A stretch of 25,187 nucleotides of DNA, from the IMG/VR virus record IMGVR_UViG_3300020042_004724, positions 1-25,187 of that record. One strand, given 5' to 3'. Position 1 is the stretch's first letter. The number at the start of each line of letters is the position of its first letter. A model generated the notes under the pieces. That model ran no database searches. It worked only from the letters and a program-made list of their open reading frames with translations, and was not told where the DNA came from. Source of the stretch: a virus. Taxonomy: Duplodnaviria; Caudoviricetes. Made by a program: the position numbers and the translations under genes. This document shows, piece after piece, positions 6,744-24,327 of this stretch.

Positions 6744-6758
6744 CTTTTGGAGGCTTAA

Positions 6759-7382: not shown

Positions 7383-7395
7383 GGAGTAATCTAAA

Positions 7396-8307: not shown

Positions 8308-8314
8308 TGAGACT

Positions 8315-8345
8315 GGAAAAGGGGCCTTGTGCCCCTTTTTCTTTT
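8315..8345 (+). terminator. intrinsic terminator after the major capsid gene (possibly bidirectional)
   Basis: AAAAGGGGC-CTTGT-GCCCCTTTT hairpin followed by TCTTTT. Confidence 0.85.
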
Positions 8346-8355
8346 GGTGTATATT
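8327..8355 (+). promoter_or_regulatory. candidate sigma70-type promoter overlapping the terminator
   Basis: TTGTGC (8327-8332), 17-nt spacer, TATATT (8350-8355). The predicted start near 8361-8362 lies just before the structured RNA. Confidence 0.45.
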
Positions 8356-8364
8356 GCATTCATC

Positions 8365-8436
8365 CCGGGGTCCCCGGTGTATCTGACAGTCCCGGCTGAC
8401 GACATGCAGACAGATACGCCCCACTTGCATGTAAGG
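8365..8436 (+). ncRNA. structured RNA downstream of the capsid gene (candidate Mu-gpT-DE motif)
   Basis: Three pairings: CCGGGG(8365-70)/TCCCGG(8390-95), GGTGTATCTG(8376-85)/CAGATACGCC(8411-20), ACATGCAG(8402-09)/TTGCATGT(8425-32). Ends at the AAGGA SD. Position after a gpT-like gene matches my recollection of the Mu-gpT-DE motif. Confidence 0.65.
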
Positions 8437-8443
8437 AAAAATC

Positions 8444-8986
8444 ATGGCACGCACTACGTTTCAAGGCCCAATTCGTTCTTTGGGCGGCATCTACCAGCAA
8501 GGCCCAGCCTCTGTTGTAGAAATTACCACTAGTACCACTTTGAGTCCTGAAGCTCACGGCGGTCGTATCATTTCTGTCGGTGGCTCTTTGGCCGCTGCAC
8601 TCACATTGACGCTCCCCACAATCAATGTTTCGACCAACCCGACCACGTCTGGCCCCGGTCAAGACCCCAATACACTGAACAACGAAGGCGTTGTTTACAC
8701 AATCTGGGTTCCTACTACCATCTCTACAAGCTCTTTGAAGATTGCTACTGACGGTACTGACAAGTACATTGGCTCAATCACTATGAACGACGTTGACGCA
8801 GACGGCGCTGCATTGGTTGGTTTCTTTGCCGCTGCCGCAAACGACTTTATTAACTTAAACGGCACTACCACTGGCGGTGTTGCTGGCTCATGGGTACAGA
8901 TTGTTGCTGTTGCTGCTCTGAAGTACATGGTCAACGGCACAGTGCTTGGTACGGGCACTGTTGCAACCCCGTTTGCCAACTCTTAA
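8444..8986 (+). CDS. putative virion structural protein (minor capsid/head fibre-like)
   Basis: AAGGA SD; N-terminal 'MARTTFQGPIRS'; T/G/A-rich beta protein; highly-expressed codon bias; own terminator. Confidence 0.7.
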   Translation: MARTTFQGPIRSLGGIYQQGPASVVEITTSTTLSPEAHGGRIISVGGSLAAALTLTLPTINVSTNPTTSGPGQDPNTLNNEGVVYTIWVPTTISTSSLKIATDGTDKYIGSITMNDVDADGAALVGFFAAAANDFINLNGTTTGGVAGSWVQIVAVAALKYMVNGTVLGTGTVATPFANS

Positions 8987-8996
8987 TCAACTCAAT

Positions 8997-9015
8997 GGGG
9001 CTTTGGCCCCTTTTT
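8997..9015 (+). terminator. intrinsic terminator
   Basis: GGGGC-TTTG-GCCCC followed by TTTTT. Confidence 0.75.
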
Positions 9016-9029
9016 AAAGGAGATTGATT

Positions 9030-9536
9030 ATGAATCAGACCGATGTAAAGCAAGCACACCTAAACGGTAGCGGCTTTATGGTAATGGGGCGCAACCGTAT
9101 CAAAGGCATCTCTTTTACCGGCACAGCAACCGCAGGTTTTGTGGCATTGTTTGATACGGTAACTGCACCTGTAACAACGGGAACCTACGGGCGTGTAGGC
9201 ACACTGGTAACAGTAACGCAAGCGGCACACGGCTTTACAACCGGGGACGTGGTTGGTATTGACTTCGCTGCTGGTACGGGCGGTACGGCCACAAACGGTA
9301 ACTACGCCGTTACTGTATTGACATCAAGCACGTTCACCATCACAGACATCAACTCTGGCAGTATCACTGCGGGCGCATCAGCGGTGTATTCAAATCGCTG
9401 GTTGATGACCTATGATGTGGCGGCTTCGGATACTTATAACAACGCGCCAATCATTCCCCAGAACGGCGTGTTAGTAGTCAACGGCATTTATGCCTACATG
9501 TCTAACGTAACTTCGTGCAACATTTACTATGGCTAA
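9030..9536 (+). CDS. putative virion protein with an inserted beta domain (E1-FCCH-like)
   Basis: AAGGAG SD favours ATG 9030 over TTG 9024. Central 'VTVTQAAHGFTTGDVV...NGNYAVTVLTSSTFT' pattern; ends in IYYG. Confidence 0.65.
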   Translation: MNQTDVKQAHLNGSGFMVMGRNRIKGISFTGTATAGFVALFDTVTAPVTTGTYGRVGTLVTVTQAAHGFTTGDVVGIDFAAGTGGTATNGNYAVTVLTSSTFTITDINSGSITAGASAVYSNRWLMTYDVAASDTYNNAPIIPQNGVLVVNGIYAYMSNVTSCNIYYG

Positions 9537-9774
9537 ATCACCCGCATGGACACGCAAGGAAGGCAAGAACCCCAAAGGCGGACTCAACGCCAAGGGCCGA
9601 GCCTCTGCGAAAAAACAAGGTATGAACCTGAAGCCTCCTCAACCCGAGGGCGGCAGCAGGCGCGACTCTTTTTGCGCCCGTATGGAGGGGATGAAGAAAA
9701 AGCTGACCAGCCCCAAGACGGCCAAAGACCCGGATTCACGGATTAACAAAAGCCTGCGGGCTTGGAAGTGCTGA
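9529..9774 (+). CDS. small basic protein (DUF6321-like)
   Basis: Lys/Arg-rich; 'AWTRKEGKNPKGGLNAKGR', 'SFCARM', C-terminal 'SLRAWKC'. Family assignment is from memory. Confidence 0.7.
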   Translation: MAKSPAWTRKEGKNPKGGLNAKGRASAKKQGMNLKPPQPEGGSRRDSFCARMEGMKKKLTSPKTAKDPDSRINKSLRAWKC

Positions 9775-9775
9775 C

Positions 9776-9994
9776 ATGAACCACGACGTAAAAACAATGA
9801 CTGATGGCGCTGCCGTAGTAATGGGCCTTGGGGGCTTCTTAGGATGGATGACTCCCGTGGTAACGCTCATTGGCGGCGTGTTGACCATCGTATGGATGGT
9901 TATCCGCATCTGGGAAACTGATACCGTACAGCGGTGGGCATATCAAGATTTTGCCAACCGCAAGAAAGGCGTCGATGAAGACAAAAAGATTTAA
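9776..9994 (+). CDS. small membrane protein, holin-like
   Basis: 72 aa; hydrophobic stretch AAVVMGLGGFLGWMTPVVTLIGGVLTIVWMVIRIW, then a charged C-terminus. Confidence 0.55.
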   Translation: MNHDVKTMTDGAAVVMGLGGFLGWMTPVVTLIGGVLTIVWMVIRIWETDTVQRWAYQDFANRKKGVDEDKKI

Positions 9995-10292
9995 CGTTGG
10001 TGGGCTGACTGGGCTTGGTAATTCCGGCGGGGCGCAAGGCGCTATGGACCAAATGGGCCAGTCTTTGGAGCAGATTAACCAAGCCGTGAATGGCAACCAA
10101 GGGTCGTCCTTTGGGTTTAGCCCCAACGCCAACTCCAACGCTGCGCCTACTCCCGGCCTGCCGTCGGCATCTGATTCCATAGCCAAGTTAACCCCATCCA
10201 AGACCTTCAAAAAGGGCGGCAAGGTGGCTGGAGCGTCCAAGCGCGGCGATGGCATTGCCCAACGCGGGAAGACTCGTGGAAAATACATGTAA
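9975..10292 (+). CDS. small low-complexity basic protein with GG motifs
   Basis: ATG 9975 preceded by AAAGG; contains FNVGGL, FKKGGKV and C-terminal 'SKRGDGIAQRGKTRGK'. Confidence 0.65.
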   Translation: MKTKRFNVGGLTGLGNSGGAQGAMDQMGQSLEQINQAVNGNQGSSFGFSPNANSNAAPTPGLPSASDSIAKLTPSKTFKKGGKVAGASKRGDGIAQRGKTRGKYM

Positions 10293-10630
10293 TGCCAAGC
10301 ACGAGCAAAAAGCAGCACAAGTTCATGGAGGCGGTGGCGCACAGCCCATCGTTTGCCAAGAAAGTGGGAGTCCCACAGTCTGTGGGTCAAGATTTTTCCA
10401 ACGCGGACAAGAGCCGCAAATTTTCAAAAGGTGGCAATATGGCAGGCAAAATGAACCCCGGTTTCATGGCAATGATCGCCAAGAAAAAAGCAGGCGCTAA
10501 AGACGCTATGCCGATGAAAGAAGGCGGCGGCGTCAAGGCTTCGTCTATGGGCGCAGTTCGTACCGCAGCCCCCAGCCGCGACGGTGTTGCCATGAAAGGC
10601 AAGACCAAGGGCAAGCAGATCAAGATGTAA
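10292..10630 (+). CDS. small basic protein with GG motifs
   Basis: TAATG coupling; FSKGGNM, MKEGGGV, C-terminal 'SRDGVAMKGKTKGKQIKM'. Confidence 0.75.
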   Translation: MPSTSKKQHKFMEAVAHSPSFAKKVGVPQSVGQDFSNADKSRKFSKGGNMAGKMNPGFMAMIAKKKAGAKDAMPMKEGGGVKASSMGAVRTAAPSRDGVAMKGKTKGKQIKM

Positions 10631-10640
10631 GGACCTCAGT

Positions 10641-10916
10641 ATGAGAGCCAGCCGGGGGATGGGGGCTATTCTGCCCTCCAAAATGCCCCGTGCCGTGAAG
10701 AAGGCACGTCGGGATGACACTGACTTTACCGAGTACGCTGAAGGCGGAGAGGTGAATGCGGCTGGGAATTACACTAAGCCGGACATGCGCAAACGAATTG
10801 TGGCCCAGGTAAAAGCTGCGGCAACTCACGGCACGGGCGCAGGCCAATGGTCGGCCCGTAAGGCACAACTTGTCGCTAAGAAGTACAAAGCGGCTGGCGG
10901 GGGATACAGAGATTGA
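10641..10916 (+). CDS. small basic protein (N-terminal half of a DUF5872-like domain)
   Basis: AAGGA SD; YAEGGEV, then 'NYTKP..RKRI...GQWSARKAQLVAKKYKAAGGGY'. Confidence 0.75.
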   Translation: MRASRGMGAILPSKMPRAVKKARRDDTDFTEYAEGGEVNAAGNYTKPDMRKRIVAQVKAAATHGTGAGQWSARKAQLVAKKYKAAGGGYRD

Positions 10917-11146
10917 AAGCACCGCAGACTTCCCTGAAAAATTGGGGCGACCAGAAATGGCGTACCAAGTCGGGGAAGCCTTCGTCAAAAACAGGCGAGA
11001 GATATCTCCCTGAGGCGGCAATCAAGTCTTTGTCTCCCGCCGAGTACGCAGCAACCACCAAGGCCAAGCGTGCGGGCAAGGCAGCCGGTAAACAGTTTGT
11101 GGCGCAGCCCAAAACCATTGCAAAGAAAACGGCAGGATTTAGATGA
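10913..11146 (+). CDS. small basic protein (C-terminal half of a DUF5872-like domain)
   Basis: TTGA overlap with the upstream stop; 'QTSLKNW..QKWRTKSG...RYLPEAA...GKQFVAQP'. Confidence 0.75.
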   Translation: MKAPQTSLKNWGDQKWRTKSGKPSSKTGERYLPEAAIKSLSPAEYAATTKAKRAGKAAGKQFVAQPKTIAKKTAGFR

Positions 11147-11856
11147 CCACTTCCGGCACCACCGCCTTCAACATGAACTTCACGGAGATTGCCGAGGAAG
11201 CATGGGAGCGTGCGGGCCGCGAAATGCGCTCTGGCTATGATCTGAAGACCGCTCGGCGATCCATGAACCTGATGACCATCGAGTGGCAAAACCGTGGTAT
11301 CAACATGTGGACCATCGAAGAGGGCTACATCAACATGGTGCAGGGCACGTCCACATACGTCCTCCCCGCCGATACCATTGACATCATGGAGCATGTGATT
11401 CGCACGGGTCAGGGGGATGTGTCCACGCAAGCCGACTTGTCCATCACGCGTATTAGTGTTTCTACTTACGCCACCATTCCTAACAAGCTTCAACAATCCC
11501 GACCAATTCAGGTTTGGGTGCAACGCTTGCGCGACGCCCCCCAGATAACTGTATGGCCAGTGCCTGACCAGGGTACCGCTGGGAGCCCCTATTACGTGTT
11601 TCGTTACTGGCGCTTGCGTCGTGTCCAGGATGCAGGCGCTGGCGTGGAGACCCCCGATGTGGTGTTTCGCTTCCTGCCCTGTGTTGTGGCGGGCTTGGCA
11701 TATCACATCGCCATGAAGAATCCTGACTTGATGTCCCGCGTAGAGATGCTTAAAAGAGCTTACGACGAGCAGTTTGACTTGGCGGCAGGGGAAGACCGCG
11801 AGAAGGCGGCAATTCGCTTTGTGCCCCGTCAGATGTTCATTGGCGGGGGTACATAA
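11143..11856 (+). CDS. head-to-tail adaptor / tail tubular-like protein (P22 gp4-like)
   Basis: ATGA coupling; 'EIAEEAWERAG', 'ARRSMNLMTIEW', 'GTSTYVLPAD', 'VWPVPD', 'GLAYHIA'. Confidence 0.65.
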   Translation: MTTSGTTAFNMNFTEIAEEAWERAGREMRSGYDLKTARRSMNLMTIEWQNRGINMWTIEEGYINMVQGTSTYVLPADTIDIMEHVIRTGQGDVSTQADLSITRISVSTYATIPNKLQQSRPIQVWVQRLRDAPQITVWPVPDQGTAGSPYYVFRYWRLRRVQDAGAGVETPDVVFRFLPCVVAGLAYHIAMKNPDLMSRVEMLKRAYDEQFDLAAGEDREKAAIRFVPRQMFIGGGT

Positions 11857-12245
11857 TGAGTAACCGGTTTGCGTCTGGCAAAAACAGTATTGCGCAGTGC
11901 GATCGGTGTGGCCAGCGGTACAAGCTCAAGAAGCTCAAGTTTGAGGTCATCAAGACCAAGCAGTACAAGCTCAATGTTTGCCCCGAGTGCTGGGACCCCG
12001 ATCAACCTCAGTTGCTGTTGGGAATGTTTCCTGTAGATGATCCCCAGGCGGTGCGCAACCCAAGGCCCGATAATACGTATTACCAGTCAGGCACTACGTC
12101 AACCGGGTCGATCGGCGGCGGTAGCAGGGTCATTCAGTGGGGGTGGAACCCAGTTGGCGGGTCTCGAAGTTTTGATAGTGCGTTGACGCCAAACTACTTG
12201 GCTTTGTCAACGGGAATTGGTACAGTCACAGCAAACGTAATCTAG
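11856..12245 (+). CDS. hypothetical protein with two CxxC motifs (putative Zn binding)
   Basis: CDRC ... CPEC followed by WDPDQPQL and DPQAVRNPRPD; TAATG coupling. Confidence 0.75.
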   Translation: MSNRFASGKNSIAQCDRCGQRYKLKKLKFEVIKTKQYKLNVCPECWDPDQPQLLLGMFPVDDPQAVRNPRPDNTYYQSGTTSTGSIGGGSRVIQWGWNPVGGSRSFDSALTPNYLALSTGIGTVTANVI

Positions 12246-12253
12246 GAGCAGAC

Positions 12254-12445
12254 ATGGACAAGAAAGACACAGCACAAGACAAGGCTATGATTAAAAAAGC
12301 CTTTTCACAGCACGACGCCCAAAAACACAAAGGTGGCAAAGGTACTGCTTTGAAACTCAAAAAAGGCGGCCCCACCAGCATGGACCGCAAAACATACGGC
12401 AAGAATTTGTCTCGCGCTATGAACCAGAAATCTGGGAGCAAATAA
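12254..12445 (+). CDS. small basic protein with GG motif
   Basis: AGGAG SD; 63 aa, Lys-rich; LKKGGPT. Confidence 0.75.
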   Translation: MDKKDTAQDKAMIKKAFSQHDAQKHKGGKGTALKLKKGGPTSMDRKTYGKNLSRAMNQKSGSK

Positions 12446-12708
12446 TGGCTAAATTCAGCAAAAAGGTAATGGGCAAAGAAGTTGGCGATGCCAGCGTCTA
12501 CGCCAAGCCCCACACCATGGACGGCAAGCCAATGCGTATTTCTGAGAACCCCGGCAGTGGCCCAAACCGCAGCCGCGCAGACACGGTCAACATGTCGGTG
12601 GGCAACATCAGCAAGTCTGATGGCGGCGCAACCAAAACCAGCGGCATCAAAATGCGTGGTACTGGCGCAGCCACCAAAGGTGTGATGTCAAGAGGCCCGA
12701 TGGCATGA
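12445..12708 (+). CDS. small basic protein
   Basis: TAATG and ATGA couplings; C-terminal 'GIKMRGTGAATKGVMSRGPMA'. Confidence 0.75.
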   Translation: MAKFSKKVMGKEVGDASVYAKPHTMDGKPMRISENPGSGPNRSRADTVNMSVGNISKSDGGATKTSGIKMRGTGAATKGVMSRGPMA

Positions 12709-13604
12709 AGTACGCGGAGCTAGTCACAGCAGTTCAGGACTACACGGAGAACACATTTCCGACGATAGACCTGAACACAATGATTCGGGTAACTGAGCAG
12801 AATATTTATAACACTGTTCAGTTGGCAAACCTGCGTAAAAATGTGACCGGCACGTTCTCAACCACAAGCGAGTATCTAGCGGTGCCCAGCGACTTCCTGT
12901 CCATCTATTCGTTGGCAGTTGTAGTAGGCGGGGTGTACTCCTACTTGTTGAGCAAAGACGTGGATTTTATCCGCGAGGCGTACCCTAACCCAACAGTCAA
13001 AGGCGTGCCACAACACTTCGCTTTGTTTGGAACCCGCTCTAACGCAGTCAATGACTTAACCTTCATTGTTGGCCCAACGGCCACTGCGGCGTATACCGCC
13101 GAGATGCACTATTACTACTACCCCGAGTCGATTATTCAGCGGGCCATTGGTAGCTTGGGCACAATTGTTCCTGGGTCTGGCTATGCCAACCGGTTTTACT
13201 TTAATGTGCCGCTTACGGGGTCGTCCTCGGGCGTGGGCGCTACGGCCAATGTCCAGGTCACAGGTGGCGCAGTGGTGGCGGTCACCATCGTCAACCCCGG
13301 GTGTTATTACGCAGTTGGCGAGACGCTGACTGGTGTGCTTGGTAGCACTGGGTCCGGATTCTCCGTGCCGGTGTTGACTGTTACCAATGAGAACGGCGAG
13401 ACTTGGGTGGGCGAGCACTTTGATGCAGCGTTGCTCAACGGCACTTTGATTGAGGCCATTCGCTATATGAAGGGCGAAAAGGACTTGGTTGATCTGTACC
13501 AGACGCAGTATTTGCAATCCATTGCACTGCTCAAGAACTTGGGTGACGGCAAGCAAGAGGCTGACACATATCGTGATGGCATGCCAAGAGTTAAGGTGTC
13601 CTAA
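12705..13604 (+). CDS. second adaptor/tail tubular-like protein with an inserted beta-rich domain
   Basis: 'YAELVTAVQDY', 'YLAVPSDFL', 'GVPQHFA', 'FIVGPT', 'ALLNGTLIEA'; ~85-aa G/V/T-rich insert. Confidence 0.6.
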   Translation: MKYAELVTAVQDYTENTFPTIDLNTMIRVTEQNIYNTVQLANLRKNVTGTFSTTSEYLAVPSDFLSIYSLAVVVGGVYSYLLSKDVDFIREAYPNPTVKGVPQHFALFGTRSNAVNDLTFIVGPTATAAYTAEMHYYYYPESIIQRAIGSLGTIVPGSGYANRFYFNVPLTGSSSGVGATANVQVTGGAVVAVTIVNPGCYYAVGETLTGVLGSTGSGFSVPVLTVTNENGETWVGEHFDAALLNGTLIEAIRYMKGEKDLVDLYQTQYLQSIALLKNLGDGKQEADTYRDGMPRVKVS

Positions 13605-13607
13605 TCC

Positions 13608-14060
13608 ATGGCAATCTCACAAACCGCAACCACCAGTTTTAAAGTTGAACTGCTCCAAGCAGTCCACAACTTTGGCCCCACGTCGCCCAACACGTTCTAC
13701 ATTGCGCTGTATACCTCGGCAGCTAACATTGGCCCGAGCACTACGGTGTACACCACGTCCAATGAAGTGTCGTCTGTTGGTACGGGCTACGCGGCTGGGG
13801 GTAAGGTGTTGACAATCAGCACTTCCCCGACCTCTGGCACAAACACCAGCGGAACCACTACGGCATACATCTCGTTCGCCACAGTGACATGGCCCAATGC
13901 GAGCTTCACCGTGCGCGGAGCGCTGATTTACAACGTGACTCAAGGTAGCAAGTCTGTTGCGGTGCTGGACTTTGGGTCCGACAAAGTTTTGAATGACGAC
14001 ACCTTGCAGGTAATCTTCCCCACCCCCGATGCCAACAGCGCCATCGTGCGGATCACATAA
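13608..14060 (+). CDS. putative virion (tail) structural protein
   Basis: 'SFKVELL', 'FYIALYTS', 'GTGYAAGG', 'RGALIYN', 'VAVLDFG'; T/S-rich. Confidence 0.7.
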   Translation: MAISQTATTSFKVELLQAVHNFGPTSPNTFYIALYTSAANIGPSTTVYTTSNEVSSVGTGYAAGGKVLTISTSPTSGTNTSGTTTAYISFATVTWPNASFTVRGALIYNVTQGSKSVAVLDFGSDKVLNDDTLQVIFPTPDANSAIVRIT

Positions 14061-14071
14061 CAGGAGTTTTT

Positions 14072-14647
14072 ATGAACAAGCCCGAAACCAGTATTGCCCA
14101 AGATGTTGTCTCCGCCGGATTGGTGACCCACAGAACCGCTACTGAGCAGGTGGGCGCGGGCGGCGTGTATACCGTCGAGTGCGTGGCACCGGACGGCACC
14201 GTCAAGTGGACGGATACCTTCCTCAACTTGGTGATGAACGAAGGCGTTCAGTACATGAACACCCAGACGTTCAAAGGCGCTGCTTATACCGCCGCTTGGT
14301 ATCTGGGCTTGGTGACTGGCCCTGGGTCCGGCACTACCTTTGCTGCTGGGGACACCCTTGTTACTCATGCGGGCTGGACTGAGAGCGCTGCGTATGCTGG
14401 GTCCCGCAAGGCGGTGACTTTTGGCACGGCAACCACGGCCAACCCATCTGTTATTTCCAACTCCGCATCCCCCGCTTCGTTTGTGATGAACGCAACGGTC
14501 ACCATTGCCGGGGCTTTCTTGACCAACGTGTCAAGCGGCACCTCAGGCGTCTTGTTTTCCGCAGGTGACTTCACTGGCGGCGACAAGTTTGTGGACAGCG
14601 GCGACACTCTGAATGTGACCTACACTTTCTCGCTGACCGCCACTTAA
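14072..14647 (+). CDS. putative virion (tail) structural protein
   Basis: AGGAG SD; 'NLVMNEG', 'WYLGLV', 'GDTLNVTYT'; beta-rich. Confidence 0.7.
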   Translation: MNKPETSIAQDVVSAGLVTHRTATEQVGAGGVYTVECVAPDGTVKWTDTFLNLVMNEGVQYMNTQTFKGAAYTAAWYLGLVTGPGSGTTFAAGDTLVTHAGWTESAAYAGSRKAVTFGTATTANPSVISNSASPASFVMNATVTIAGAFLTNVSSGTSGVLFSAGDFTGGDKFVDSGDTLNVTYTFSLTAT

Positions 14648-14658
14648 TAGGGGGTTAG

Positions 14659-15687
14659 GTGTTTGGAATATCCGCATTCGCCCAGGCTCCATTTGCATCT
14701 TTAGGTAAGACGAGCGTCATTGTTGACGTATCGCTGGCTGAGGCTGCAAATGCGGTATCGGCGTATTTGTCGCGGGCCGATTTTGTTGCTACGGATGCGG
14801 AGACCGGCACTGCGGCTGAGGTGGTCAACACCGTCAACAACATCTTCAACCCGGTGGTGGCGGAGACCGCAAGCAGCTTAGGTGTGTTTGCCAGCCTCGC
14901 CAGCTTTGCTCCTACCATTGACGAAGCTGCATCCGTAGGAAATACCTTCACCGCGCAAGCTGACTTTGTAGCCACCAACGCCGAAGCAGCGCAGGCTACA
15001 AGTGCACAGACAGCCCAAGCTGACTTTTTAGCCGCAGTTGCCGAAACCGCCTCAGGGGCAGGCGTGTCCACCAGCGTTGCTACATTTGTAGCGTCAATAC
15101 TCAGTACCGCGTCTGGGGCCGGGGTTTCAACCGCTCAACTTCTCTTGGGCGCAAGCATTTCAGAGGCGGCGTCGTCGCAAGCCGCTGTAGTGGGGCTGGC
15201 TACATTTGCAACCAACATAGCTGAGCTTGCTCAAGCAGCAGAGTTCTCTTCCAGCCAAGTTGCGTTTCAAGCCGCGCTTTTAGAAGCGGCGTCGGGGGCG
15301 TCGGCCAGTTCAGGCGCTATTGTTTTTGCGGTCTCAATATCGGAGCAAGCGTCCGGCGCGTCTGCGCAAACTGTGACTGCGGTGCTTAACAGCACGGTTG
15401 CGGAAGCGGCCACGGCCTTGTCGGCTTTGACGGCGTTGCGGTACGCCAATGTGTATCTCACCGGGGTCCAAATTTACGTTCAGATTGGCAATGCGCTGGT
15501 CTGGGGGAAAATACAAGACGGCGGCGCAGTAAACTGGCAAAATGTGCCTACGGCGCTCTCAGCATCTTGGACAGGGGTTACAACCGGATCAGACGTGGCT
15601 TGGACAGCGACTGCAAGCGTTTCGGCCCCCACTTGGGACCCGATCGTGGTACCCCAAGCACCAGACTGGGACAACATCCCATCGTAA
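14659..15687 (+). CDS. Ala-rich repeat protein, putative fibre/shaft component
   Basis: GTG start after GGGGG; N-terminal 'MFGISAFAQAPFASLG'; ~11 20-aa repeats; six Trp at 11-aa spacing at the C-terminus. Confidence 0.7.
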   Translation: MFGISAFAQAPFASLGKTSVIVDVSLAEAANAVSAYLSRADFVATDAETGTAAEVVNTVNNIFNPVVAETASSLGVFASLASFAPTIDEAASVGNTFTAQADFVATNAEAAQATSAQTAQADFLAAVAETASGAGVSTSVATFVASILSTASGAGVSTAQLLLGASISEAASSQAAVVGLATFATNIAELAQAAEFSSSQVAFQAALLEAASGASASSGAIVFAVSISEQASGASAQTVTAVLNSTVAEAATALSALTALRYANVYLTGVQIYVQIGNALVWGKIQDGGAVNWQNVPTALSASWTGVTTGSDVAWTATASVSAPTWDPIVVPQAPDWDNIPS

Positions 15688-15696
15688 GGAAATGAC

Positions 15697-18600
15697 ATGG
15701 CCCTCGTAGTAAAAGACAGAGTACAAGAAACAACCACAACCACAGGTACCGGCACGCTTACCTTGGGCGGGGCGGCGCTTGGATTCCAGTCCTTTGCAAC
15801 AATTGGTAACGGCAACGCCACTTACTACACCATCAACGACACTATCACTGGGGATTGGGAAGTTGGCATTGGTACGTACACCGCGTCGGGTACAACCCTG
15901 TCGCGCACTACTGTGCTGTCTTCCAGCAATGGCGGAGCGCTGGTGTCGTTTACCGCCGGGTCCAAAAACGTCTTTGTGACCTACCCGTCCGAGCGGGCTG
16001 TGTACAAGGACTTGGCGGATGTTTACACGGTGCAACAAGCGTTTGATGCGCTTACCGCCAACTCAATTGCGCTGACCACGGGAACAATTAGCACAGCCCC
16101 GGTCAACAACACAGATATTGTCAACAAACAGTACGCCGACGCCATTGCGTCTGGCATTCACTTTCACGAAGCTGTGGATTTGGCGACTACCACAGCCCTG
16201 CCAGCAAACACATACAACAACGGCGCATCTGGGGTAGGGGCAACGCTCACCGCAAACGCCAATGGCGCTTTGTCTGTGGACTCAACGCTTACCGTCGCTT
16301 CAAACCGGATATTGGTGAAGAACGAAGCCGCGCAAGCAAACAACGGTGTGTATACGGTCACTCAGGTTGGCTCCGCTGGGACGCCATACATTCTGACTCG
16401 GGCAACCGACTTTGATACCGCTGGAACCGGGGTTGACCAGATTGACGAGGGTGACTTTTTCTTGGTGACCAGCGGCACAGTAAACCTGAACACCGCTTGG
16501 GTTCAACAGACTGCGCCCCCGATAACAGTTGGCACAACGGCAATTGTCTTCCAGCAGTTTGCTGCGCCAATCACATACACGGCGGGTACGGGTTTAAATG
16601 AATCCCCAAGCTACACCTTTAACATTGCTACCACAGGGGTGAGCGCGGCAACCTACGGTTCTGCGTCCCAAGTACCTGTGTTTGCGGTCAACGCCCAGGG
16701 CCAGATCACATCGGTCACCAATACGGCCATAGCGATCGCCGCTGGTGCGGTGTCGGGCCTCGCAGCTTCAGCCACCACGGACACAACCAATGCAAGCAAT
16801 ATCTCATCTGGGACGCTCCCTACGGGGCGGCTGTCTGGTTCTTATACAGGAATTACAGGTGTTGGTACTCTCGCTGCTGGTACTTGGAACGGGAGTGTTA
16901 TTGGTCCTGTGTATGGCGGTACTGGATTCGGTACTTACGCTGTGGGAGATTTGCTGTACGCGGATACAACGTCTTCTCTGGCCAAACTCGCAGACATAGC
17001 TGTTGGCAACGCACTGATCTCCGGCGGTGTGAGTTCAGCCCCAAGTTGGGGCAAGATTGGCTTGGCCACGCACGTTAGCGGCACCCTTCCAATCGCCAAC
17101 GGGGGTACAAATACCAGCGCCACGGCCACCAACGGCGGGGTCACCTACGGCACGGGCACCGCGTATGCCTTCACGGCTGCGGGCACTTCCGGCCAAATTT
17201 TGCAGAGCAACGGCGCAGCGGCTCCGACTTGGGTTAGCTTGTCCACAGTGGGCGTTACAACATTCAGCGCGGGCACCACGGGGTTTACCCCTAGCACGGC
17301 AACATCTGGCGCAGTCACGTTGGCAGGTACATTGAACGTAGCCAATGGTGGCACGGGCGTAACCACTTCCACAGGCACCGGGGCTGTTGTGCTGTCTACC
17401 AGCCCATCGTTGACGACTCCAATTCTAGGAACCCCTCAGTCTGGCAACTTCAGCACTGGCACTTTTACTTGGCCCACGTTCAATCAGAACACCACTGGCA
17501 ACGCCGCCACGGCAAGCAACGCAAGCTTGTTAAACAGCATATCCGCTGTTAATTTGTACAACAACATGGGGGCTGTCCACGGCGCAATAGCTTCATTTGA
17601 TGCCACAACTCCCTCTTATGACTTTGGGTATCGCTATGTGCAAGGGAGTGCCAATGGACCCGGTACAGGGCAATCGCAATATTATTCTTGGTACATAGGT
17701 CTTGGCTCTCAATATCCTGCAACTGGCGCGGGGTCTTATGGTGCCATGTTTGCTGTAGGCAGAACTCCGGGCACACCATATCTCTCTGTCAGATATAACG
17801 AATCCAATTCATTTTCGGCTTGGCAAAAAGTTGCGGCGGGTTATGCGGATAGCGCAGGCGCAGTTGACTACAACAACCTGACGAACAAAACAGGGGGTAC
17901 GGGTACATACACAACCAGCGGGGACTACCGCGCTCCCATCTTCTATGATTCCAACGACACCACATATTATGGAGATTTTGCTAGTACGTCTAACATTTAT
18001 AACCTAACAATTAAAGGTGTAATGGGCGATGGTACAGCCCCGCTACGGCTTTCACCAACAAGCTCTTCCGGCACTTTTCAATGGGCATCCACTGCTATAT
18101 CAGCCTCGCTTGGTGCTGGTCAGACGATGGCTCATTTTATTGGAAACGCACTTAGCGCCGGTAATAGTGGGTATTTGGGGTTCAACTACGCCGGTGCAGC
18201 ATCAGCAAGTAACTACGTATCGCTGGGCCATTACGGAAACGATAATATCTTACGCGTGTACTACGGTACATACACTCAATCTTCGGGTAGTATGCGCGCC
18301 CCCATCTTCTACGACTCCGACGACACCACGTATTACGTTGACCCCGCCAGTACATCAAATATGAATGTTGTTCAGTTGCTGAACGGCAAATGGTACCCCG
18401 TTAACAATGAAAGCGGCCAATCAATAAACATATATGTCCGCCCCAATGGAGATAATACGTATGTCTGGAGGCACATTTATGGAGGCACAGGTTCTGGGTA
18501 TGGCACTGGCGTGGGCGGCTACGGCATTTATAACCAGACATTGGGAGGGGACTACAACTTAATATTCAGTCCCTCTGGCTTTGTCACGGCCCCCTATTCC

Positions 18601-20823
18601 TACCGCGCCCCCATCTTCTACGACTCCGAGGACACCGCGTACTACCTTAACCCCAACTCTACAAGCGACTCTGCTTTGCGTATTCGCGGCGGTGCTTTAC
18701 ATGGGCCAAATGTAACTTGGAGCAAGTATTTGCTTGTTGGGGGGGATGGGCGACAAAACTATATCAACAACGCAGACGTTGCGTCTGTCTGCACGACAAA
18801 CGGCAACTTGCACATGGACGCTGCAAGTGGCACTGATATGTATCTTAACTATTACGATGGCGTTAATATCTACATTGGTAATGGAGCAACAGCCACAGTT
18901 TCCAGTTTAAACGGGGGTGACGGAAGCCACCGCGCTCAAATTTTTTACGACTACAACAACACCGCGTATTACGGCGACTTTGCCAGCACATCAAACGTCA
19001 ACCAAATAAATATGCAGGGGTTCCTGCGGCGCAATACGTCCGCTGCCGGGTATATGGAGGGCAACTATCCAACCAGCTTGGATGGCAATGCTTCAGCGGC
19101 AATCTACACAATTGGCGGCATTTATCAGCCTGCCGCCAACACCCTTGGAAATATGTATGGTGTTGGGTACACGGTAGGTAACGGTACGGCTAGTCCAGGA
19201 TTGGGTCAAACTGGCTGGGGCTTTTATGTTGCATCCGGTGGAACATCCAGGATTTTTTTGGATTCTGACAGCGGCGTTGGTATTGTAACCGGATCACTCC
19301 GTGCTCCCATTTTCTATGACTCCAACAACACCGCGTATTACGGCGACTTCGCCAGCAATTCAATCTTAAACACTCTTACCGTTAATAGCGGGTCTAGTTT
19401 AGGAACGTGGTATGTCACTGGAAACGGATCAGTTAACGGCTCTTCTAATGTAGGTTTAAATGTATATTCTAGTGGCGGTAGCGGCGCAATTATGGCGTTC
19501 CATCGCGGCGGGTATTACGCTGTCAACATGGGGCTGGACTCTGACAACGTGTTGCGCATCGGCGGCTGGTCTGCCGCAGCAAGCCGCTGGCAACTGGATA
19601 TGTCTGGTAACAATTACATTGCCGGAGACTTCTACGCGGTCAACAATGTACGAATAGGTAAGGGTAATCTCTCCGTAGCCACCAACACGGCGGTCGGGGT
19701 AGCTGCGCTTGCCTCTGTAAATAGCAACTATCACACAGCGGTGGGCTACCAAGCCTTGCAGGGGATGACTACCTACGTCAACCCTGTTTACCCAATTGCA
19801 GGCGGCAGCACAGCGGTCGGGTATGGCGCACTTCAATCCAACGTTGGCAACACTACGCTTGGCTCTGGGAATACCGCAATAGGTTCCGGGGCGATGTACA
19901 ACGCAACGGGCGCATATCTGTGCACCGTTGTTGGAGCCTACGCCGGATACAACCTGACAGGCGGAGCCACAAACACAATAATTGGGCACCGCGCAGGCCA
20001 AGTTATGGCAAATAACAGTAGCTCAATTATTATTGGGTACAACACTGCGCCCAACCTTAACTCCAATTATGGGTCAGGTAACTCCAACACTATTATTGGA
20101 AACAACGCGGGCGCATTTTATTATGGCAGCAACAACACCATATTAGGGGCTAATACAGGCTTTAACATGGCGTTCAGTGTCAATGCAGCCAACGCCAGCA
20201 ATGTTTTAATTGGTGCAAATACCTTATATACCCAGGAATATACAACGACGCAGTGTACGTTTGTGGGCTATGCCTCAATGAATACTTGGAATGGAGATGT
20301 TACCAACTCAGCGTCTTTGGGGTACCTTACCGACGTAACCGGTAACAACCAAGTTCAGCTTGGGAACTCCAGCACCACAACCTATGTGTATGGCACGGTG
20401 CAAAACCGGTCGGACGCACGGGACAAAGCCGATATTCGGGATACTCAGCTTGGGTTGGGTTTTATTGAAGCCTTGCGCCCAGTGGATTTCCGTTGGGATT
20501 ACCGGGAGTCTTATATTGACCATATTCCGTCAGAGGACGAAGATGGCAACGACACCTCCACTCGGATTGAGCACCCCAAAGACGGTAGTCGCAAGCGCAC
20601 CCGCTACCACCACGGCTTGATTGCCCAAGAGGTCAAAGAGATGCTGGATGCCAAAGGGATTGACTTTGGTGGATACCAAGACCACTCAGTGGCTGGGGGC
20701 AAAGATGTGCTGACTATCGGGTATGACGAACTGGTTGGGCCGCTCATCAAAGCGGTGCAGGAGTTGTCAAATCAAGTAAAAGCGTTATCATTGGAACTGG
20801 CCGATTTGAAGGCCAAATCTTAG
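15697..20823 (+). CDS. long tail fibre 1 with C-terminal peptidase S74 intramolecular chaperone
   Basis: 1708 aa G/T/S/N-rich; GTLPIANGGT shaft repeats; five RAPIFYD repeats; NTAVG beta-roll repeats; 'RSDARDK...LRPVDFRW...GLIAQE...LIKAVQEL'. Confidence 0.9.
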   Translation: MALVVKDRVQETTTTTGTGTLTLGGAALGFQSFATIGNGNATYYTINDTITGDWEVGIGTYTASGTTLSRTTVLSSSNGGALVSFTAGSKNVFVTYPSERAVYKDLADVYTVQQAFDALTANSIALTTGTISTAPVNNTDIVNKQYADAIASGIHFHEAVDLATTTALPANTYNNGASGVGATLTANANGALSVDSTLTVASNRILVKNEAAQANNGVYTVTQVGSAGTPYILTRATDFDTAGTGVDQIDEGDFFLVTSGTVNLNTAWVQQTAPPITVGTTAIVFQQFAAPITYTAGTGLNESPSYTFNIATTGVSAATYGSASQVPVFAVNAQGQITSVTNTAIAIAAGAVSGLAASATTDTTNASNISSGTLPTGRLSGSYTGITGVGTLAAGTWNGSVIGPVYGGTGFGTYAVGDLLYADTTSSLAKLADIAVGNALISGGVSSAPSWGKIGLATHVSGTLPIANGGTNTSATATNGGVTYGTGTAYAFTAAGTSGQILQSNGAAAPTWVSLSTVGVTTFSAGTTGFTPSTATSGAVTLAGTLNVANGGTGVTTSTGTGAVVLSTSPSLTTPILGTPQSGNFSTGTFTWPTFNQNTTGNAATASNASLLNSISAVNLYNNMGAVHGAIASFDATTPSYDFGYRYVQGSANGPGTGQSQYYSWYIGLGSQYPATGAGSYGAMFAVGRTPGTPYLSVRYNESNSFSAWQKVAAGYADSAGAVDYNNLTNKTGGTGTYTTSGDYRAPIFYDSNDTTYYGDFASTSNIYNLTIKGVMGDGTAPLRLSPTSSSGTFQWASTAISASLGAGQTMAHFIGNALSAGNSGYLGFNYAGAASASNYVSLGHYGNDNILRVYYGTYTQSSGSMRAPIFYDSDDTTYYVDPASTSNMNVVQLLNGKWYPVNNESGQSINIYVRPNGDNTYVWRHIYGGTGSGYGTGVGGYGIYNQTLGGDYNLIFSPSGFVTAPYSYRAPIFYDSEDTAYYLNPNSTSDSALRIRGGALHGPNVTWSKYLLVGGDGRQNYINNADVASVCTTNGNLHMDAASGTDMYLNYYDGVNIYIGNGATATVSSLNGGDGSHRAQIFYDYNNTAYYGDFASTSNVNQINMQGFLRRNTSAAGYMEGNYPTSLDGNASAAIYTIGGIYQPAANTLGNMYGVGYTVGNGTASPGLGQTGWGFYVASGGTSRIFLDSDSGVGIVTGSLRAPIFYDSNNTAYYGDFASNSILNTLTVNSGSSLGTWYVTGNGSVNGSSNVGLNVYSSGGSGAIMAFHRGGYYAVNMGLDSDNVLRIGGWSAAASRWQLDMSGNNYIAGDFYAVNNVRIGKGNLSVATNTAVGVAALASVNSNYHTAVGYQALQGMTTYVNPVYPIAGGSTAVGYGALQSNVGNTTLGSGNTAIGSGAMYNATGAYLCTVVGAYAGYNLTGGATNTIIGHRAGQVMANNSSSIIIGYNTAPNLNSNYGSGNSNTIIGNNAGAFYYGSNNTILGANTGFNMAFSVNAANASNVLIGANTLYTQEYTTTQCTFVGYASMNTWNGDVTNSASLGYLTDVTGNNQVQLGNSSTTTYVYGTVQNRSDARDKADIRDTQLGLGFIEALRPVDFRWDYRESYIDHIPSEDEDGNDTSTRIEHPKDGSRKRTRYHHGLIAQEVKEMLDAKGIDFGGYQDHSVAGGKDVLTIGYDELVGPLIKAVQELSNQVKALSLELADLKAKS
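17929..19360 (+). repeat. five dispersed in-frame direct repeats (~60 nt, encoding RAPIFYDSxxTxYYxD/NxxS)
   Basis: Starts at 17929, 18295, 18604, 18931 and 19300. Copies 2 and 3 share 26 identical nt; copies 4 and 5 share 27 identical nt. Confidence 0.9.
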
Positions 20824-20835
20824 GAGCGATAAACC

Positions 20836-21192
20836 ATGGCAATCACTTACACATGGGCTGTGACCGGTATGAAAGTCACGACCGCCGGGGCCAACCCCGA
20901 CTACGTTGTGCAGACATACTGGACAAAAACAGGTACCGACGAGAATGGCAACACGGGCGTGTTCAGCGGCGCAACGCCGTTTGCACCCAACCCCAGCCAA
21001 CCAGACTTTGTGCCGTTTGACCAGTTGACGCAAGAAATTGTGCTCAGTTGGATTGAGCCCTTGGTCGTTGGTTCCTACGCGGAACACGTAGATGGTGTGA
21101 TTGCCAAACAAATCGCCGATAAGATTGATCCCGTGACGGACGCCGACTTACCGTGGGCTCCCCCGTCACCAACTCCAACTCCACCCGTCTAA
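20836..21192 (+). CDS. tail fibre-associated small protein (assembly chaperone-like)
   Basis: AGGAG SD; directly follows fibre 1; 'ITYTWAV', 'FVPFDQLTQEIVLSWI', 'LPW'. Confidence 0.7.
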   Translation: MAITYTWAVTGMKVTTAGANPDYVVQTYWTKTGTDENGNTGVFSGATPFAPNPSQPDFVPFDQLTQEIVLSWIEPLVVGSYAEHVDGVIAKQIADKIDPVTDADLPWAPPSPTPTPPV

Positions 21193-21417: not shown

Positions 21418-24327
21418 ATGTCAACTTTTTCCAGTCTCAAATTTGAGCTTATACTGACCGGCGACCAGTCCGGCCAGTGGGGCAACACAACCAATGCAAA
21501 TATTGGTACTGCGATCAACGAGGCAATCGCTGGGTCCGTCGATATCACATTTGCCAGCGCGGACTTGACCCTCACGCTGACGGATACCAACGCGGCGCAA
21601 AGCGCACGCAACCTGCGGCTGAACCTGACCGGCACTGCTGGCGGGGCTGCACGCACACTTACCCTTGGCTCCGGGTGCCAGATCAACAAACCCTACATCG
21701 TCAACAACACCCTCGCAAACGCTGTGACGGTCAAGAATACGACGGGTACCGGCATCGCCGTGCCCGCAGGCGCAACCATGTGGTTGTTCAATAACGGCAC
21801 CAACGTGGTGGACGTTGTGTCCTACCTCTCCTCCCTGACCCTGGGCACCGCACTTGTCGCTACCTCTGGCGGTACTGGTCAATCCAGCTACGCGGTTGGT
21901 GACCTGCTTTATGCCAACACCACCACAACCCTTGCAAAACTTGCAGACATAGCCACGGGCAACGCACTGATCTCGGGAGGCGTAACAACTGCGCCAAGCT
22001 GGGGGAAAATTGGCTTAACCACGCACATTACGGGCACTCTTGCCGCAACCAACGGCGGTACTGGCGCAAGTACTACCACCACGGGCGACTTGTTGTATGG
22101 ATCGGCATCCGACACTTGGACAAAGCTGGCAGGCAACACCACAACCACCCGAAAGTACTTGGTGTCTGTGGGCAGTGGGTCTGCGGCAACCGCTCCAGAG
22201 TGGGATCAGATTGACATTGGTGGCACCGACATTACGGGCACTCTTGCCGCCACAAACGGCGGTACCGGGACAGCCACCGTGACTACGGGCGACATACTGT
22301 ATGGGGGGACGACCTCCAACACTTGGGCAAAGCTTGCCGCAGGCACTGCTGGTCAACTTCTTCAAACCAACGGTGCGGCGGCTCCGTCCTGGGTAAATGC
22401 ACCAACTTTTACCGGCGTATCGTCGTTTACCGGAGGGACTACCGGACTTTTACCGAGCACCGCATCTACGGGGGCAATATCGCTTTCAGGCACCCTGGCG
22501 ATAGGCTCTGGCGGTACAGGCGCAACTACGCAGCAAACAGCAATAAATGCTTTGGCTGGCGCGGTTACTATTAGAAAGTTTCTGCGGGGTGATGGCACTA
22601 ATGTGAGTATGGCGGATATCGAGGTGGCGGACGTTCCAACACTTAACCAAAGCACAACCGGCACAGCGGGGGGCTTGGGTGCCGGAATTGTTTTGCCGGT
22701 GGCTTCGGGTGGCACTAGCCATAGCAGTTACTCTACTGGTGACATTCTTTATGCCAGTGCCCCTGGCGCATTGACTAAACTGGCTGCGGGAACCACAGGC
22801 TACGCACTTCTTACAAACGGCCCATCAGCGGGGCCGTCATGGGGGCAGATAGCCTTAGGAAGCGCGGTGTCTGGCACGTTGCCTGTAGCAAACGGGGGCA
22901 CGGGCACAGCAACCCCGAGCCTTGTTGCGGGTACAAACGTTACCATTACCGGCACTTGGCCCAACCAAACAATTAACTCGTCGGGTGGCGGCGGAAGCGT
23001 TCCAGGAGGTGCCGCCAATCAGATTGTGTACCAGTCTGCCTCAAGCACGTCTACGTTTATCGCAGCCCCCACAACCGCCAGCACATATTTAAGCTGGACT
23101 GGGTCGGCATTTGCTTGGGCCAACGTAACTCCTGGCAGCACATTTGCCGGAGACATTTCTGTCAATGGCTTGACTGTTGGTAGGGGCACCGCCAGCGTTG
23201 CAACCAACACCGCCTTGGGGTATCAGGCCAACAATGCGGTGACCACTGCCCCAGGGCTAACTTCCGTAGGATACCAAGCGAATAAAAGCGTTACAACCAG
23301 CCCATTCCATACTGCTGTTGGGTATCAAGCCAATGCCGCTATGGTCGATAGTTATGGTGTTGGGCCTAATCCTTGGGAAACAAATACCGCCGTTGGCTAC
23401 CAAGCATTAACAGCAAACTATGGGTTTCCGGGCATATCATCAAATACCGCAGTCGGAGGAGGAGCCGCCGCTGGATTGACAGGCGGCTATCTCAATGTTT
23501 CTGTTGGCTCAGGCGCGGGGCCAGTATCGAGCGCGGCAACCAATGTCTGTATTGGCGCTTACGCTGGGCGTTACTACAGCAACCAAAATTCCATACTTAT
23601 TGGTTATGAAACGTATTCCCAAGTGACTGGCACCACCGCCACTGGCTCTGGTATAACAGCTATTGGGCACCAAGCAATGTACGGCGCAACGGCTGGTAGC
23701 TCGGGCAAGGTTACTGATAATTGCGTTGCCCTTGGGTATCGAGCACTTTATGCACTTGACCCCGGTTTGGGGGCCAATTCCTACCGCAATACAGCTTTAG
23801 GGAGCAATGCGGGGTCTTCGTTGGAAACGGGGGTCAATAACACCCTTTTGGGATACAGCGCGCAAGCCAGCACAACCACAGCATCCAATGAGTTTGTGTT
23901 GGGCAACAGTTCAGTGTCTGTTTTGCGTTGCCAACAGTCTTCAATTAGCGGCTTGTCCGATGCGCGGGATAAGTACGATATTGAAGACTTGCCGGTTGGG
24001 TTGGACTTCATCAACTCTCTTAAAGCACGCCGGTTCAAATGGGACAAGCGCGATGCGTACTTTGATGAAATAGAAAATGAAGATGGCTCCACAACTCAGG
24101 TGGCCGTCCCCAAAGACGGGTCGCGCAAGTCCGAGGAATGGAACGAAGGTTTTATTGCTCAGGAGATGGATGAGGCCGCAACGGCGGCTGGCGCAGACTG
24201 GATGAAGATTGTGTATAAATCCAACCCAGAAAAGTTGGAAATGGCCCCCGGCAAGCTCATCCCCGTTTTGGTCAAAGCCATCCAAGAACTGACGGCGCGT
24301 CTTGAGGCGCTAGAGGCAAGAAATTGA
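21418..24327 (+). CDS. tail fibre 2 with C-terminal peptidase S74 intramolecular chaperone
   Basis: 969 aa; N-terminal anchor 'GDQSGQWGNTTNAN'; GDLLY/GTLxxxxGGTG shaft repeats; NTALGYQA repeats; 'LSDARDK...GFIAQE...LVKAIQEL'. Confidence 0.88.
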   Translation: MSTFSSLKFELILTGDQSGQWGNTTNANIGTAINEAIAGSVDITFASADLTLTLTDTNAAQSARNLRLNLTGTAGGAARTLTLGSGCQINKPYIVNNTLANAVTVKNTTGTGIAVPAGATMWLFNNGTNVVDVVSYLSSLTLGTALVATSGGTGQSSYAVGDLLYANTTTTLAKLADIATGNALISGGVTTAPSWGKIGLTTHITGTLAATNGGTGASTTTTGDLLYGSASDTWTKLAGNTTTTRKYLVSVGSGSAATAPEWDQIDIGGTDITGTLAATNGGTGTATVTTGDILYGGTTSNTWAKLAAGTAGQLLQTNGAAAPSWVNAPTFTGVSSFTGGTTGLLPSTASTGAISLSGTLAIGSGGTGATTQQTAINALAGAVTIRKFLRGDGTNVSMADIEVADVPTLNQSTTGTAGGLGAGIVLPVASGGTSHSSYSTGDILYASAPGALTKLAAGTTGYALLTNGPSAGPSWGQIALGSAVSGTLPVANGGTGTATPSLVAGTNVTITGTWPNQTINSSGGGGSVPGGAANQIVYQSASSTSTFIAAPTTASTYLSWTGSAFAWANVTPGSTFAGDISVNGLTVGRGTASVATNTALGYQANNAVTTAPGLTSVGYQANKSVTTSPFHTAVGYQANAAMVDSYGVGPNPWETNTAVGYQALTANYGFPGISSNTAVGGGAAAGLTGGYLNVSVGSGAGPVSSAATNVCIGAYAGRYYSNQNSILIGYETYSQVTGTTATGSGITAIGHQAMYGATAGSSGKVTDNCVALGYRALYALDPGLGANSYRNTALGSNAGSSLETGVNNTLLGYSAQASTTTASNEFVLGNSSVSVLRCQQSSISGLSDARDKYDIEDLPVGLDFINSLKARRFKWDKRDAYFDEIENEDGSTTQVAVPKDGSRKSEEWNEGFIAQEMDEAATAAGADWMKIVYKSNPEKLEMAPGKLIPVLVKAIQELTARLEALEARN
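22025..22250 (+). repeat. 22-nt perfect direct repeat within fibre 2 (shaft unit duplication, 204-nt period)
   Basis: ACATTACGGGCACTCTTGCCGC at 22025 and 22229. Confidence 0.8.

Follow-up and report, generated by a model that had tools for sequence, protein, structure and literature searches.

Shuffling at conserved coding motifs is already known from the adhesins of T-even phages. In the gp37/gp38 fibre genes, conserved coding motifs alternate with variable segments, and the sections of PMC3157838 used here describe exchanges within or near these motifs, from a shared pool and with no dedicated recombinase, citing Tetart 1996 and Tetart 1998 for the recombination at motifs. In gp38, according to the same sections, glycine-rich motifs stand between hypervariable segments in strict synteny, and the segments are short loops of one domain. 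The tail fibre gene described here is built in a similar way around a coding motif, RAPIFYD. Unlike gp38, however, whole modules of 85–160 aa are exchanged in free order, the fibre family has 1–19 motif copies per protein and 356 module clusters, the modules are common to podovirus-like and T4-like phages, and the motif sequence has no obvious relation. Searches of the PDB and Pfam gave no sequence match to gp37/gp38, and the motifs lack a fixed synteny; an Atlas feature match to T4 gp36 at 0.92 provides a lead. Judged by sequence, the fibre works like T-even adhesin shuffling, and on present evidence it is no member of that system by descent.

In the antireceptors of Streptococcus thermophilus phages, collagen-like repeats lie between domains, with a variable region VR2, and there too repeats separate variable domains of a receptor-binding protein (PMC5601072). 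As far as the cited part of that paper goes, the antireceptors have few variable regions, low-complexity repeats and one host species; here the motif is complex and 20 aa long, and the pool is large. The PeSLs of T4-type phages are similar in that modules are inserted, deleted and replaced when repeated elements recombine; in the cited excerpt they are intergenic promoter–terminator cassettes that move whole genes, whereas here a coding repeat moves parts of a protein (PMC2839356). The S74-chaperoned trimeric fibres (Bdellovibrio MAT fibres, PMC10769870; the T5 L-shaped fibre; T4 gp34) combine a C-terminal S74 domain, a beta-rich trimer and mosaic construction. A C-terminal Peptidase_S74 domain and a mosaic build are present here as well, but there is no significant sequence or fold match to these fibres, and the portion of the MAT-fibre account used (PMC10769870) contains no recurring DNA seam. 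Excerpts of other papers report recent mosaicism across phage families in fibres and spikes (PMC10684548), the suggestion that mobile fibre domains aid transfer (PMC12143355) and invertase-driven stf exchange (PMC3945230). What is notable here is the scale, the free order, the exchange between phage types and the group-specific spelling of the motif.

Integron arrays, the R64 shufflon, the Cin/Gin/Min invertible fibre tips, DGRs and CRISPR arrays share the repeat-spacer look or the diversification of attachment proteins. A sequence-only reading of this DNA had proposed an integron- or CRISPR-like architecture within one open reading frame. The likeness is architectural only, and no cognate recombinase, reverse transcriptase or Cas gene was found in the records searched. 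In contrast to integrons, shufflons and invertase systems, there is no fixed DNA site, hairpin or inversion, and the repeats are direct, coding and in frame. A DGR has a reverse transcriptase with a template and a variable repeat, whereas here there is no PF00078 domain and, within the window, no second copy of any module. The repeats of a CRISPR array are non-coding and near-identical, with spacers of 25–45 nt, whereas the five repeats here are coding and 62–85% alike, with spacers of 249–309 nt.

Layout of the fibre gene and its repeats

The window, which is the whole stretch of DNA analysed (25,187 nucleotides), contains a phage head-tail block with terminase, portal, capsid and SU10-type adaptors, recognized by family and profile matches. 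The capsid has 73% identity to MinM2/Yong1/JY27 and 65% to pelagiphage HTVC023P. The best matches of the capsid gene (7396–8307) are three 65,014-bp records of equal score with three different listed hosts, and thus the capsid gives no host hint. A 61-kb relative carries PolA, a helicase, a PD-(D/E)XK nuclease and an ejection-protein match. We read the source phage, from these sequence matches, as an uncultured freshwater podovirus-like phage related to HTVC023P.

Tail fibre 1 (15697..20823, plus strand, as are all features of the gene) is an open reading frame of 1708 aa that matches phrog_4636 (tail spike, E 2e-72), and it is predicted to be a host-recognition fibre. The Peptidase_S74 intramolecular chaperone lies at 20410..20655 (aa 1572–1653, E 2e-8). 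The conserved N-terminal chassis, an anchor and shaft (15697..17513), has 92–100% aa identity to relatives P0002 and P0067 in most 40-aa blocks, up to aa 600. It ends at the TTGNAATA stretch, which bounds the variable region on the left, and DNA identity to the related contig L140 breaks at about 17513–17522. The variable head module M0 (17514..17928), whose left border is not the repeat, is absent from L140, P0002 and P0059 and has a 78% homologue in P0022.

The five in-frame 60-nt repeats start at 17929, 18295, 18604, 18931 and 19300, with the spacings of 366, 309, 327 and 369 nt first reported for them. Repeat 1 (17929..17988) looks hybrid; its right half is identical to the copy preceding M1 in the AT-rich genes L009/L087. 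Module M1 (17989..18294) is common to the window and a T4-like myovirus. Between repeat 2 (18295..18354) and repeat 3 (18604..18663) lies M2 (18355..18603), which is 89.6% identical in aa to the first module of P0002 and belongs to a cluster of 14. M3 (18664..18930) is the commonest module of a sample partly gathered using M3 itself (cluster of 75), and it has 47 kinds of upstream neighbour among 64. Repeat 4 (18931..18990) is a RAQIFYDY variant that travels with M3. M4 (18991..19299) is found at 96.9% aa identity in P0059, and a member of its family matches phrog_6162 (tail fibre). Identity to L140 resumes at repeat 5 (19300..19359), followed by M5 (19360..19620), which matches phrog_4900 (tail protein) and is the last or an inner module in relatives.

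Several neighbouring genes were also noted. A second S74 fibre of 969 aa (21418–24327) lacks the RAPIFYD motif and shares with fibre 1 a 173-nt stretch at 72% (21889–22061 vs 16936–17108). Directly after fibre 1 is a DUF7936 gene (20836–21192), whose product is possibly a fibre-associated chaperone; in genome G001, too, a member of this family comes after the array gene. Residues 150–225 of an SU10-type adaptor (12705–13604) match tail-fibre and baseplate PHROGs, which suggests an adaptor with an inserted domain. The gene at 14659–15687 has repeats with a period of 60 nt, and its Ala-rich product of 342 aa matches no family. An NCBIfam search gave a match for none of three queries.

The repeats contain longer exact DNA matches than the protein requires, as the sequence-only reading had pointed out: 26 identical bases in copies 2 and 3, and 27 in copies 4 and 5. 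Two such exact pairs were seen in 0 of 5000 simulations in which synonymous codons were redrawn from the gene's own usage. The spacers are mutually unrelated by profile comparison, with hhalign probability at or below 2.2% among the four, and the modules of the family are rich in G, Y and N, as proposed (14% G, 10% S, 9% N, 7% Y). Copies 2–5 were also said to favour C-ending codons against AT-richer spacers. The contrast itself is seen, since third-position GC is 0.45, 0.80, 0.85, 0.65 and 0.70 in copies 1–5 and 0.39–0.54 in the spacers, but it is the spacers that deviate. The rate of C-ending at two-fold codons is 32/45 in the repeats, like that of the N-terminal part of the gene (65/98, p = 0.70), and 50/97 in the spacers.

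Could faulty assembly of the metagenomes at the repeats have produced the mosaics? Contigs do sometimes break near repeats, but the copies are too unlike each other (62–85%) to favour this, and difference-free single contigs bridge repeats 2–5 in run X1 (18139–20246) and repeats 1–3 in run X3 (17642–18670, with 18671–19729 as the adjoining contig). Wherever contigs of runs X1, X3, X5 and X6 cover the array, they agree with it at every base, although the best-matching run may be the source sample itself. Furthermore, the blocks shared with other phages are 81–87% identical, not 100%, and the cultured phage genome OR003938.1 has a 4-motif array. The array is not an assembly artefact, and mis-assembly as a source of the mosaics, to which we give next to no chance, is already largely refuted.

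Module exchange between phages

Searches of viral contigs with the spacers alone gave 8 loci for M1, 5 for M2, 80 of 93 for M3 and 21 for M4. The motif was present in 102 of the 114 loci listed from these searches, with 0 matches in shuffled sequence. A protein search scored 7998 sequences, of which 1479 were relatives; all 120 of the 120 matches listed contain the motif. After removal of 57 of 249 arrays as at least 90% redundant, the motif-bearing family comprised 192 non-redundant proteins with 1375 motifs and 1167 inner modules, which fall into 356 clusters (183 singletons) in a sample biased towards the window's own modules; L195 was excluded from the DNA statistics. Among 153 genes there are 152 distinct module strings, a figure inflated by the removal of redundant arrays. 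The unit length is 70–160 aa in 79% of cases, with quartiles of 103–152 aa. Among chassis relatives there are 0 to 7 motif copies, and none in 46 of the 56 complete ones. An array of four motifs also occurs in the cultured Synechococcus phage DSL-LC03 (accession WJZ47903.1), in a 3161-aa protein that carries no annotation. We found no description of the RAPIFYD motif or its family in the open-access literature searched.

A scan of species genomes gave 10 motif loci in bins of scattered taxa and no host call. Two loci in one bacterial bin, L212:1-6791 and L213:1-7095, have closely similar arrays of 12 and 13 motifs that differ in the middle, and are probably co-binned phages. Motif copies only 26 aa apart, i.e. 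empty units, are seen in L216:3501-7935, which is in a Myxococcales bin with GC3 >0.8, and in the arrays of L039 and L042, which are phage genes; L039/L042 also have two adjacent modules from one cluster.

The modules recur elsewhere in different order and number, as had been predicted. For cluster pairs that occur together in two or more genes, 187 of 600 are found in both orders; a fixed module order, which would have told against shuffling, is not seen in the relatives, where both orders and numbers vary. Among near-identical module pairs (at least 75% aa identity, n = 818), 598 have non-homologous neighbours on both sides and 100 have homologous neighbours on both. L140 is 93–97.6% identical to the window over 6694–17522, then has a different array until repeat 5, and holds none of M0–M4 at high identity. 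P0002 (N-terminus 95.7%) has M2 in the first module position. From the third motif onwards P0002 and P0067 differ in one block only, and their first modules also differ. The expectation that homologues are always flanked by the repeat was not borne out: flanks on both sides were found for 20 of the 32 close homologues and for 17 of the 51 distant ones, and modules also occur first, last, or in fibres that lack the motif.

Each window module has a DNA partner with a common block that runs from repeat to repeat. For M1, the block is 86.7% identical in nucleotides over 17932–18367 with L009/L086 and 86.1% over 17941–18344 with L087/L088; for M3, 81% over 18616–18978 with L006; and for M4, 82.8% over 18940–19363 with L094. 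The stretch 19300–19613, with M5, is 83.8% identical to L006. The M1 partner L088 is in G004, a complete 162-kb genome of 34–39% GC with genes for a tail sheath, a T4-type head and capsid, and UvsX. By its gene content G004 is a T4-like myovirus, and the sequences point to exchange of M1 across phage types. In GC-rich genes, 13 of 43 modules have an AT-rich homologue at 75% identity or above.

Where does the shared ancestry switch? The repeats had been proposed as homology joints. For blocks of at least 85% DNA identity, 63 of the 92 ends lie at the motif in both genes (−15 to +75 nt from the motif start), where 25% are expected, in 36 genes whose pairs are not independent, and 60 of the 63 are in the same register. 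The shared blocks thus mostly begin and end in the repeat, as proposed, but not every break is at a repeat: 29 of the 92 ends are off detected motifs, some of them at degenerate copies, and breakpoints are seen at 17513 and mid-module, as in one of the P0002/P0067 breaks. Selection for folding would also place ends at the motif, as would alignments that run on through it, and so the location of the ends is in itself no proof of mechanism.

Around the motif, excess identity tied to the upstream module is 0.5–0.8 before R and falls to about 0.1 at most positions from +11, while that tied to the downstream module starts at 0 and reaches about 0.6 by +21. Upstream relatedness fades and downstream relatedness builds across the same residues, 0 to +14, and the crossover points are spread over about 40 nt.

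The TTGNAATA stretch (17492–17522), at the chassis end, is the left break against both L140 and P0002. In fibres that lack the repeat, NATAT-type runs stand before M4-like modules. The TTGNAATA and NATAT-type runs are possibly a second class of joint; the codons of the TTGNAATA stretch are scattered among 8 copies.

Silent sites of the motif and structure of the unit

The genes were divided into a GC-rich set, to which the window belongs (14 genes, GC3 of at least 0.40), and an AT-rich set (71 genes). The 14 GC-rich genes are kin, so p-values overstate. In the GC-rich set, Pro is CCC in 35 of 42 cases (22% expected), Gly is GGG in 24 of 28 (26% expected), and GCC (31/44) and ACC (37/56) are likewise preferred, against an expectation of 22–26% with codon context. 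The choice is position-specific: CCC, GCC and ACC are used, yet also GGG and GCG, and TAT is followed by TAC. Synonymous identity between GC-rich genes is 0.65, compared with 0.41 expected, and exact runs of at least 20 nt are found in 9.8% of GC-rich pairs, compared with 0.1% expected. In the AT-rich set the position biases are milder, and silent identity between genes equals the expectation (0.52 vs 0.52); between the GC classes it is below expectation (0.30 vs 0.38). The median exact run is 6–7 nt among AT-rich genes and between classes, yet modules crossed classes. A spelling fixed across the family is therefore not found: AT-rich genes have AGA GCA CCA where GC-rich genes have CGC GCC CCC. 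A metagenome scan with the shaft found the motif in 1 of 80 loci and did not replicate the codon pattern independently; a DNA-pattern scan (19 loci) selects on spelling and was kept out of the codon test.

Since an excess is seen between GC-rich genes and none between AT-rich genes, protein constraint alone fails to explain the repeat identity in the window's group, and there is no family-wide DNA site. The claim that identity extends beyond protein need thus holds for the GC-rich group. Gene-specific conversion alone was considered and rejected. Silent identity within a gene exceeds that between GC-matched genes in 44 of 62 genes, but for the window itself the two are alike (0.655 within the gene vs 0.635 to GC-matched other genes).

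One alternative is that the motif is only a protein joint, where rare illegitimate events are filtered by folding and the spelling reflects descent or GC pressure. The equality of observed and expected silent identity between AT-rich genes and the breaks off the motif are consistent with this, as is the GC3 of the GC-rich genes, which is simply higher in the motif cores (0.77) than in the modules (0.48) or chassis (0.57). However, the ancestry switch falls within the motif instead of at its edge and keeps register, and a control stretch, TGNAATA, has scattered codons in its 8 copies, in contrast to the position-specific choices in the motif. Furthermore, in four GC-rich pairs with 45–65% aa identity in the module, the silent sites of the module are at chance (0.37 vs 0.35 expected), while those of the flanking cores are not (0.77 vs 0.41). 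We consider it unlikely that the motif is a protein joint and nothing else.

A structural role in addition is probable. The unit repeat 3–M3–repeat 4, modelled as three copies, is predicted to be an intertwined homotrimer with ipSAE 0.97, compared with 0.00 for the best of 3 controls; 20 of 30 solved pairs passed the mark used for this score, as did 1 of 23 single chains. The trimer prediction, which had been proposed with the original reading, has pLDDT 96 and about 600 inter-chain contacts, and runs agree in 98% of contacts. Because motif residues are in the predicted trimer interface, which the protein-joint explanation would also expect, the motif is probably a structural joint as well.

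What do the modules do? None of the 61 modules reached the Pfam cut-off, including for a Shufflon_N/PilV link that we looked for and rejected, and 6 of 61 have a PHROG match, five of these labelled tail. Only 2 of 78 pairs among 13 common clusters are related. A sequence search of the PDB gave chance matches only. Monomer models are all-beta with middling confidence (pLDDT 70 and 64), a Foldseek search of folds gave no match at E 0.001, and the best VIA Z was 4.7, on the monomer model of pLDDT 64. The top fold neighbours, weak and non-significant (Z <5), include Bdellovibrio Bd2133, T4 gp34, the T5 L-shaped fibre and phage spikes. The shuffling could be real while most modules are spacers that tune fibre length, stiffness and surface, with the distal domain alone binding the receptor. 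The lack of Pfam matches or a solved relative, the weak neighbours, which are trimeric beta-fibres only, and the narrow quartiles of unit length all suit such spacers. On the other hand, 356 clusters and cross-type exchange would fit diversifying selection on exposed surfaces better, and the richness of the modules in G, N, Y and W also seems to speak for exposed, diversified surfaces. We consider the spacer interpretation rather unlikely.

Recombination and proposed mechanism

The sequence-only reading had suggested diversification without an invertase or reverse transcriptase, and this agrees with the gene content. PF00239, PF00589 and PF00078 are absent in five records (G000–G004), with positive controls; four of these are at least 90% complete and the window's own genome about 40%. 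No RecT, ERF or AAA_24 was found in three podovirus-like relatives, and the T4-like partner G004 encodes UvsX. Between the helicase and primase genes of G001 there is a conserved 302-aa protein, widespread in phages (L198:271-1176), with no named match; by its position alone it is a candidate DNA-binding or annealing protein. A 2820-aa open reading frame (L198:4714-13173) is located beside ejection and endolysin-like genes in the podovirus-like G001.

Six metagenome runs show a single arrangement of the array, with no rearranged copy with long flanks in their contigs, which drop rare variants. Joints at repeats that looked like deletions were rejected, as their sides were 22 and 34 nt or other letters lay between, and they belong to other phages' genes. 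Given one arrangement and no long-flanked rearranged contig, slow exchange on an evolutionary time scale fits better than programmed switching. The cited part of PMC3945230 describes phage recombinases that act on short, diverged homology.

A dedicated site-specific recombinase might instead act on the repeat, as in an integron or a shufflon but within one open reading frame. The fixed spelling in the GC-rich group, with otherwise infrequent codons, and the block ends in register would be in keeping with this, and the incompleteness of the window's own genome leaves room for such a gene. But the spelling tracks genome composition, the repeats form no hairpin (z −0.4 to +1.8) and the five window copies are direct. 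Moreover, no serine or tyrosine recombinase is present in the four near-complete genomes, a single arrangement is seen in the metagenome runs, and crossovers spread over about 40 nt. We regard a dedicated recombinase as very improbable.

In the best reading, general recombination driven by homology acts at a coding seam and folding filters its products; the system is not an integron or a CRISPR array. We put at about 70% the probability that the short coding motif is both a structural joint and a homology seam at which general recombination swaps whole modules in frame. The gene is a chain of unrelated modules split by the motif, and relatives show these modules in other orders and numbers. 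Within the motif the left part goes with the upstream module and the right part with the downstream one, as the statistics of shared identity show. Co-infecting phages would swap, insert or delete whole 85–160-residue modules in frame. Crossovers in two motif copies would keep frame and register. The product would still fold, since every module begins and ends on the same joint. In the GC-rich podovirus-like group, repeated exchange and conversion may homogenise the silent sites of the motif, and the longer perfect matches that result would favour further exchange. By analogy with other fibres, the modules would bind host-surface structures and new chains would alter adsorption. Candidate catalysts are host RecA, the partner's UvsX, or an unrecognised annealing protein.

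A bolder proposal, which we consider quite unlikely, is that the RAPIFYD repeat is a DNA-level standard selected for recombinability, in a cassette library of podoviruses and T4-like myoviruses that is integron-like within coding sequence. If true, hundreds of binding modules would form one library across freshwater hosts, perhaps by way of an unrecognised phage annealing protein.

For the renewal of host recognition in uncultured aquatic phages, these results mean that one motif marks the exact borders of modules in a large fibre family. The library becomes countable, with at least 356 module clusters that have no Pfam names. That phages of very different types have recently exchanged modules implies that they share hosts or are linked through relay partners. 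Whether conserved fibre motifs persist because they serve folding, recombination or both is now directly testable, with Synechococcus phage DSL-LC03 as a cultured carrier.
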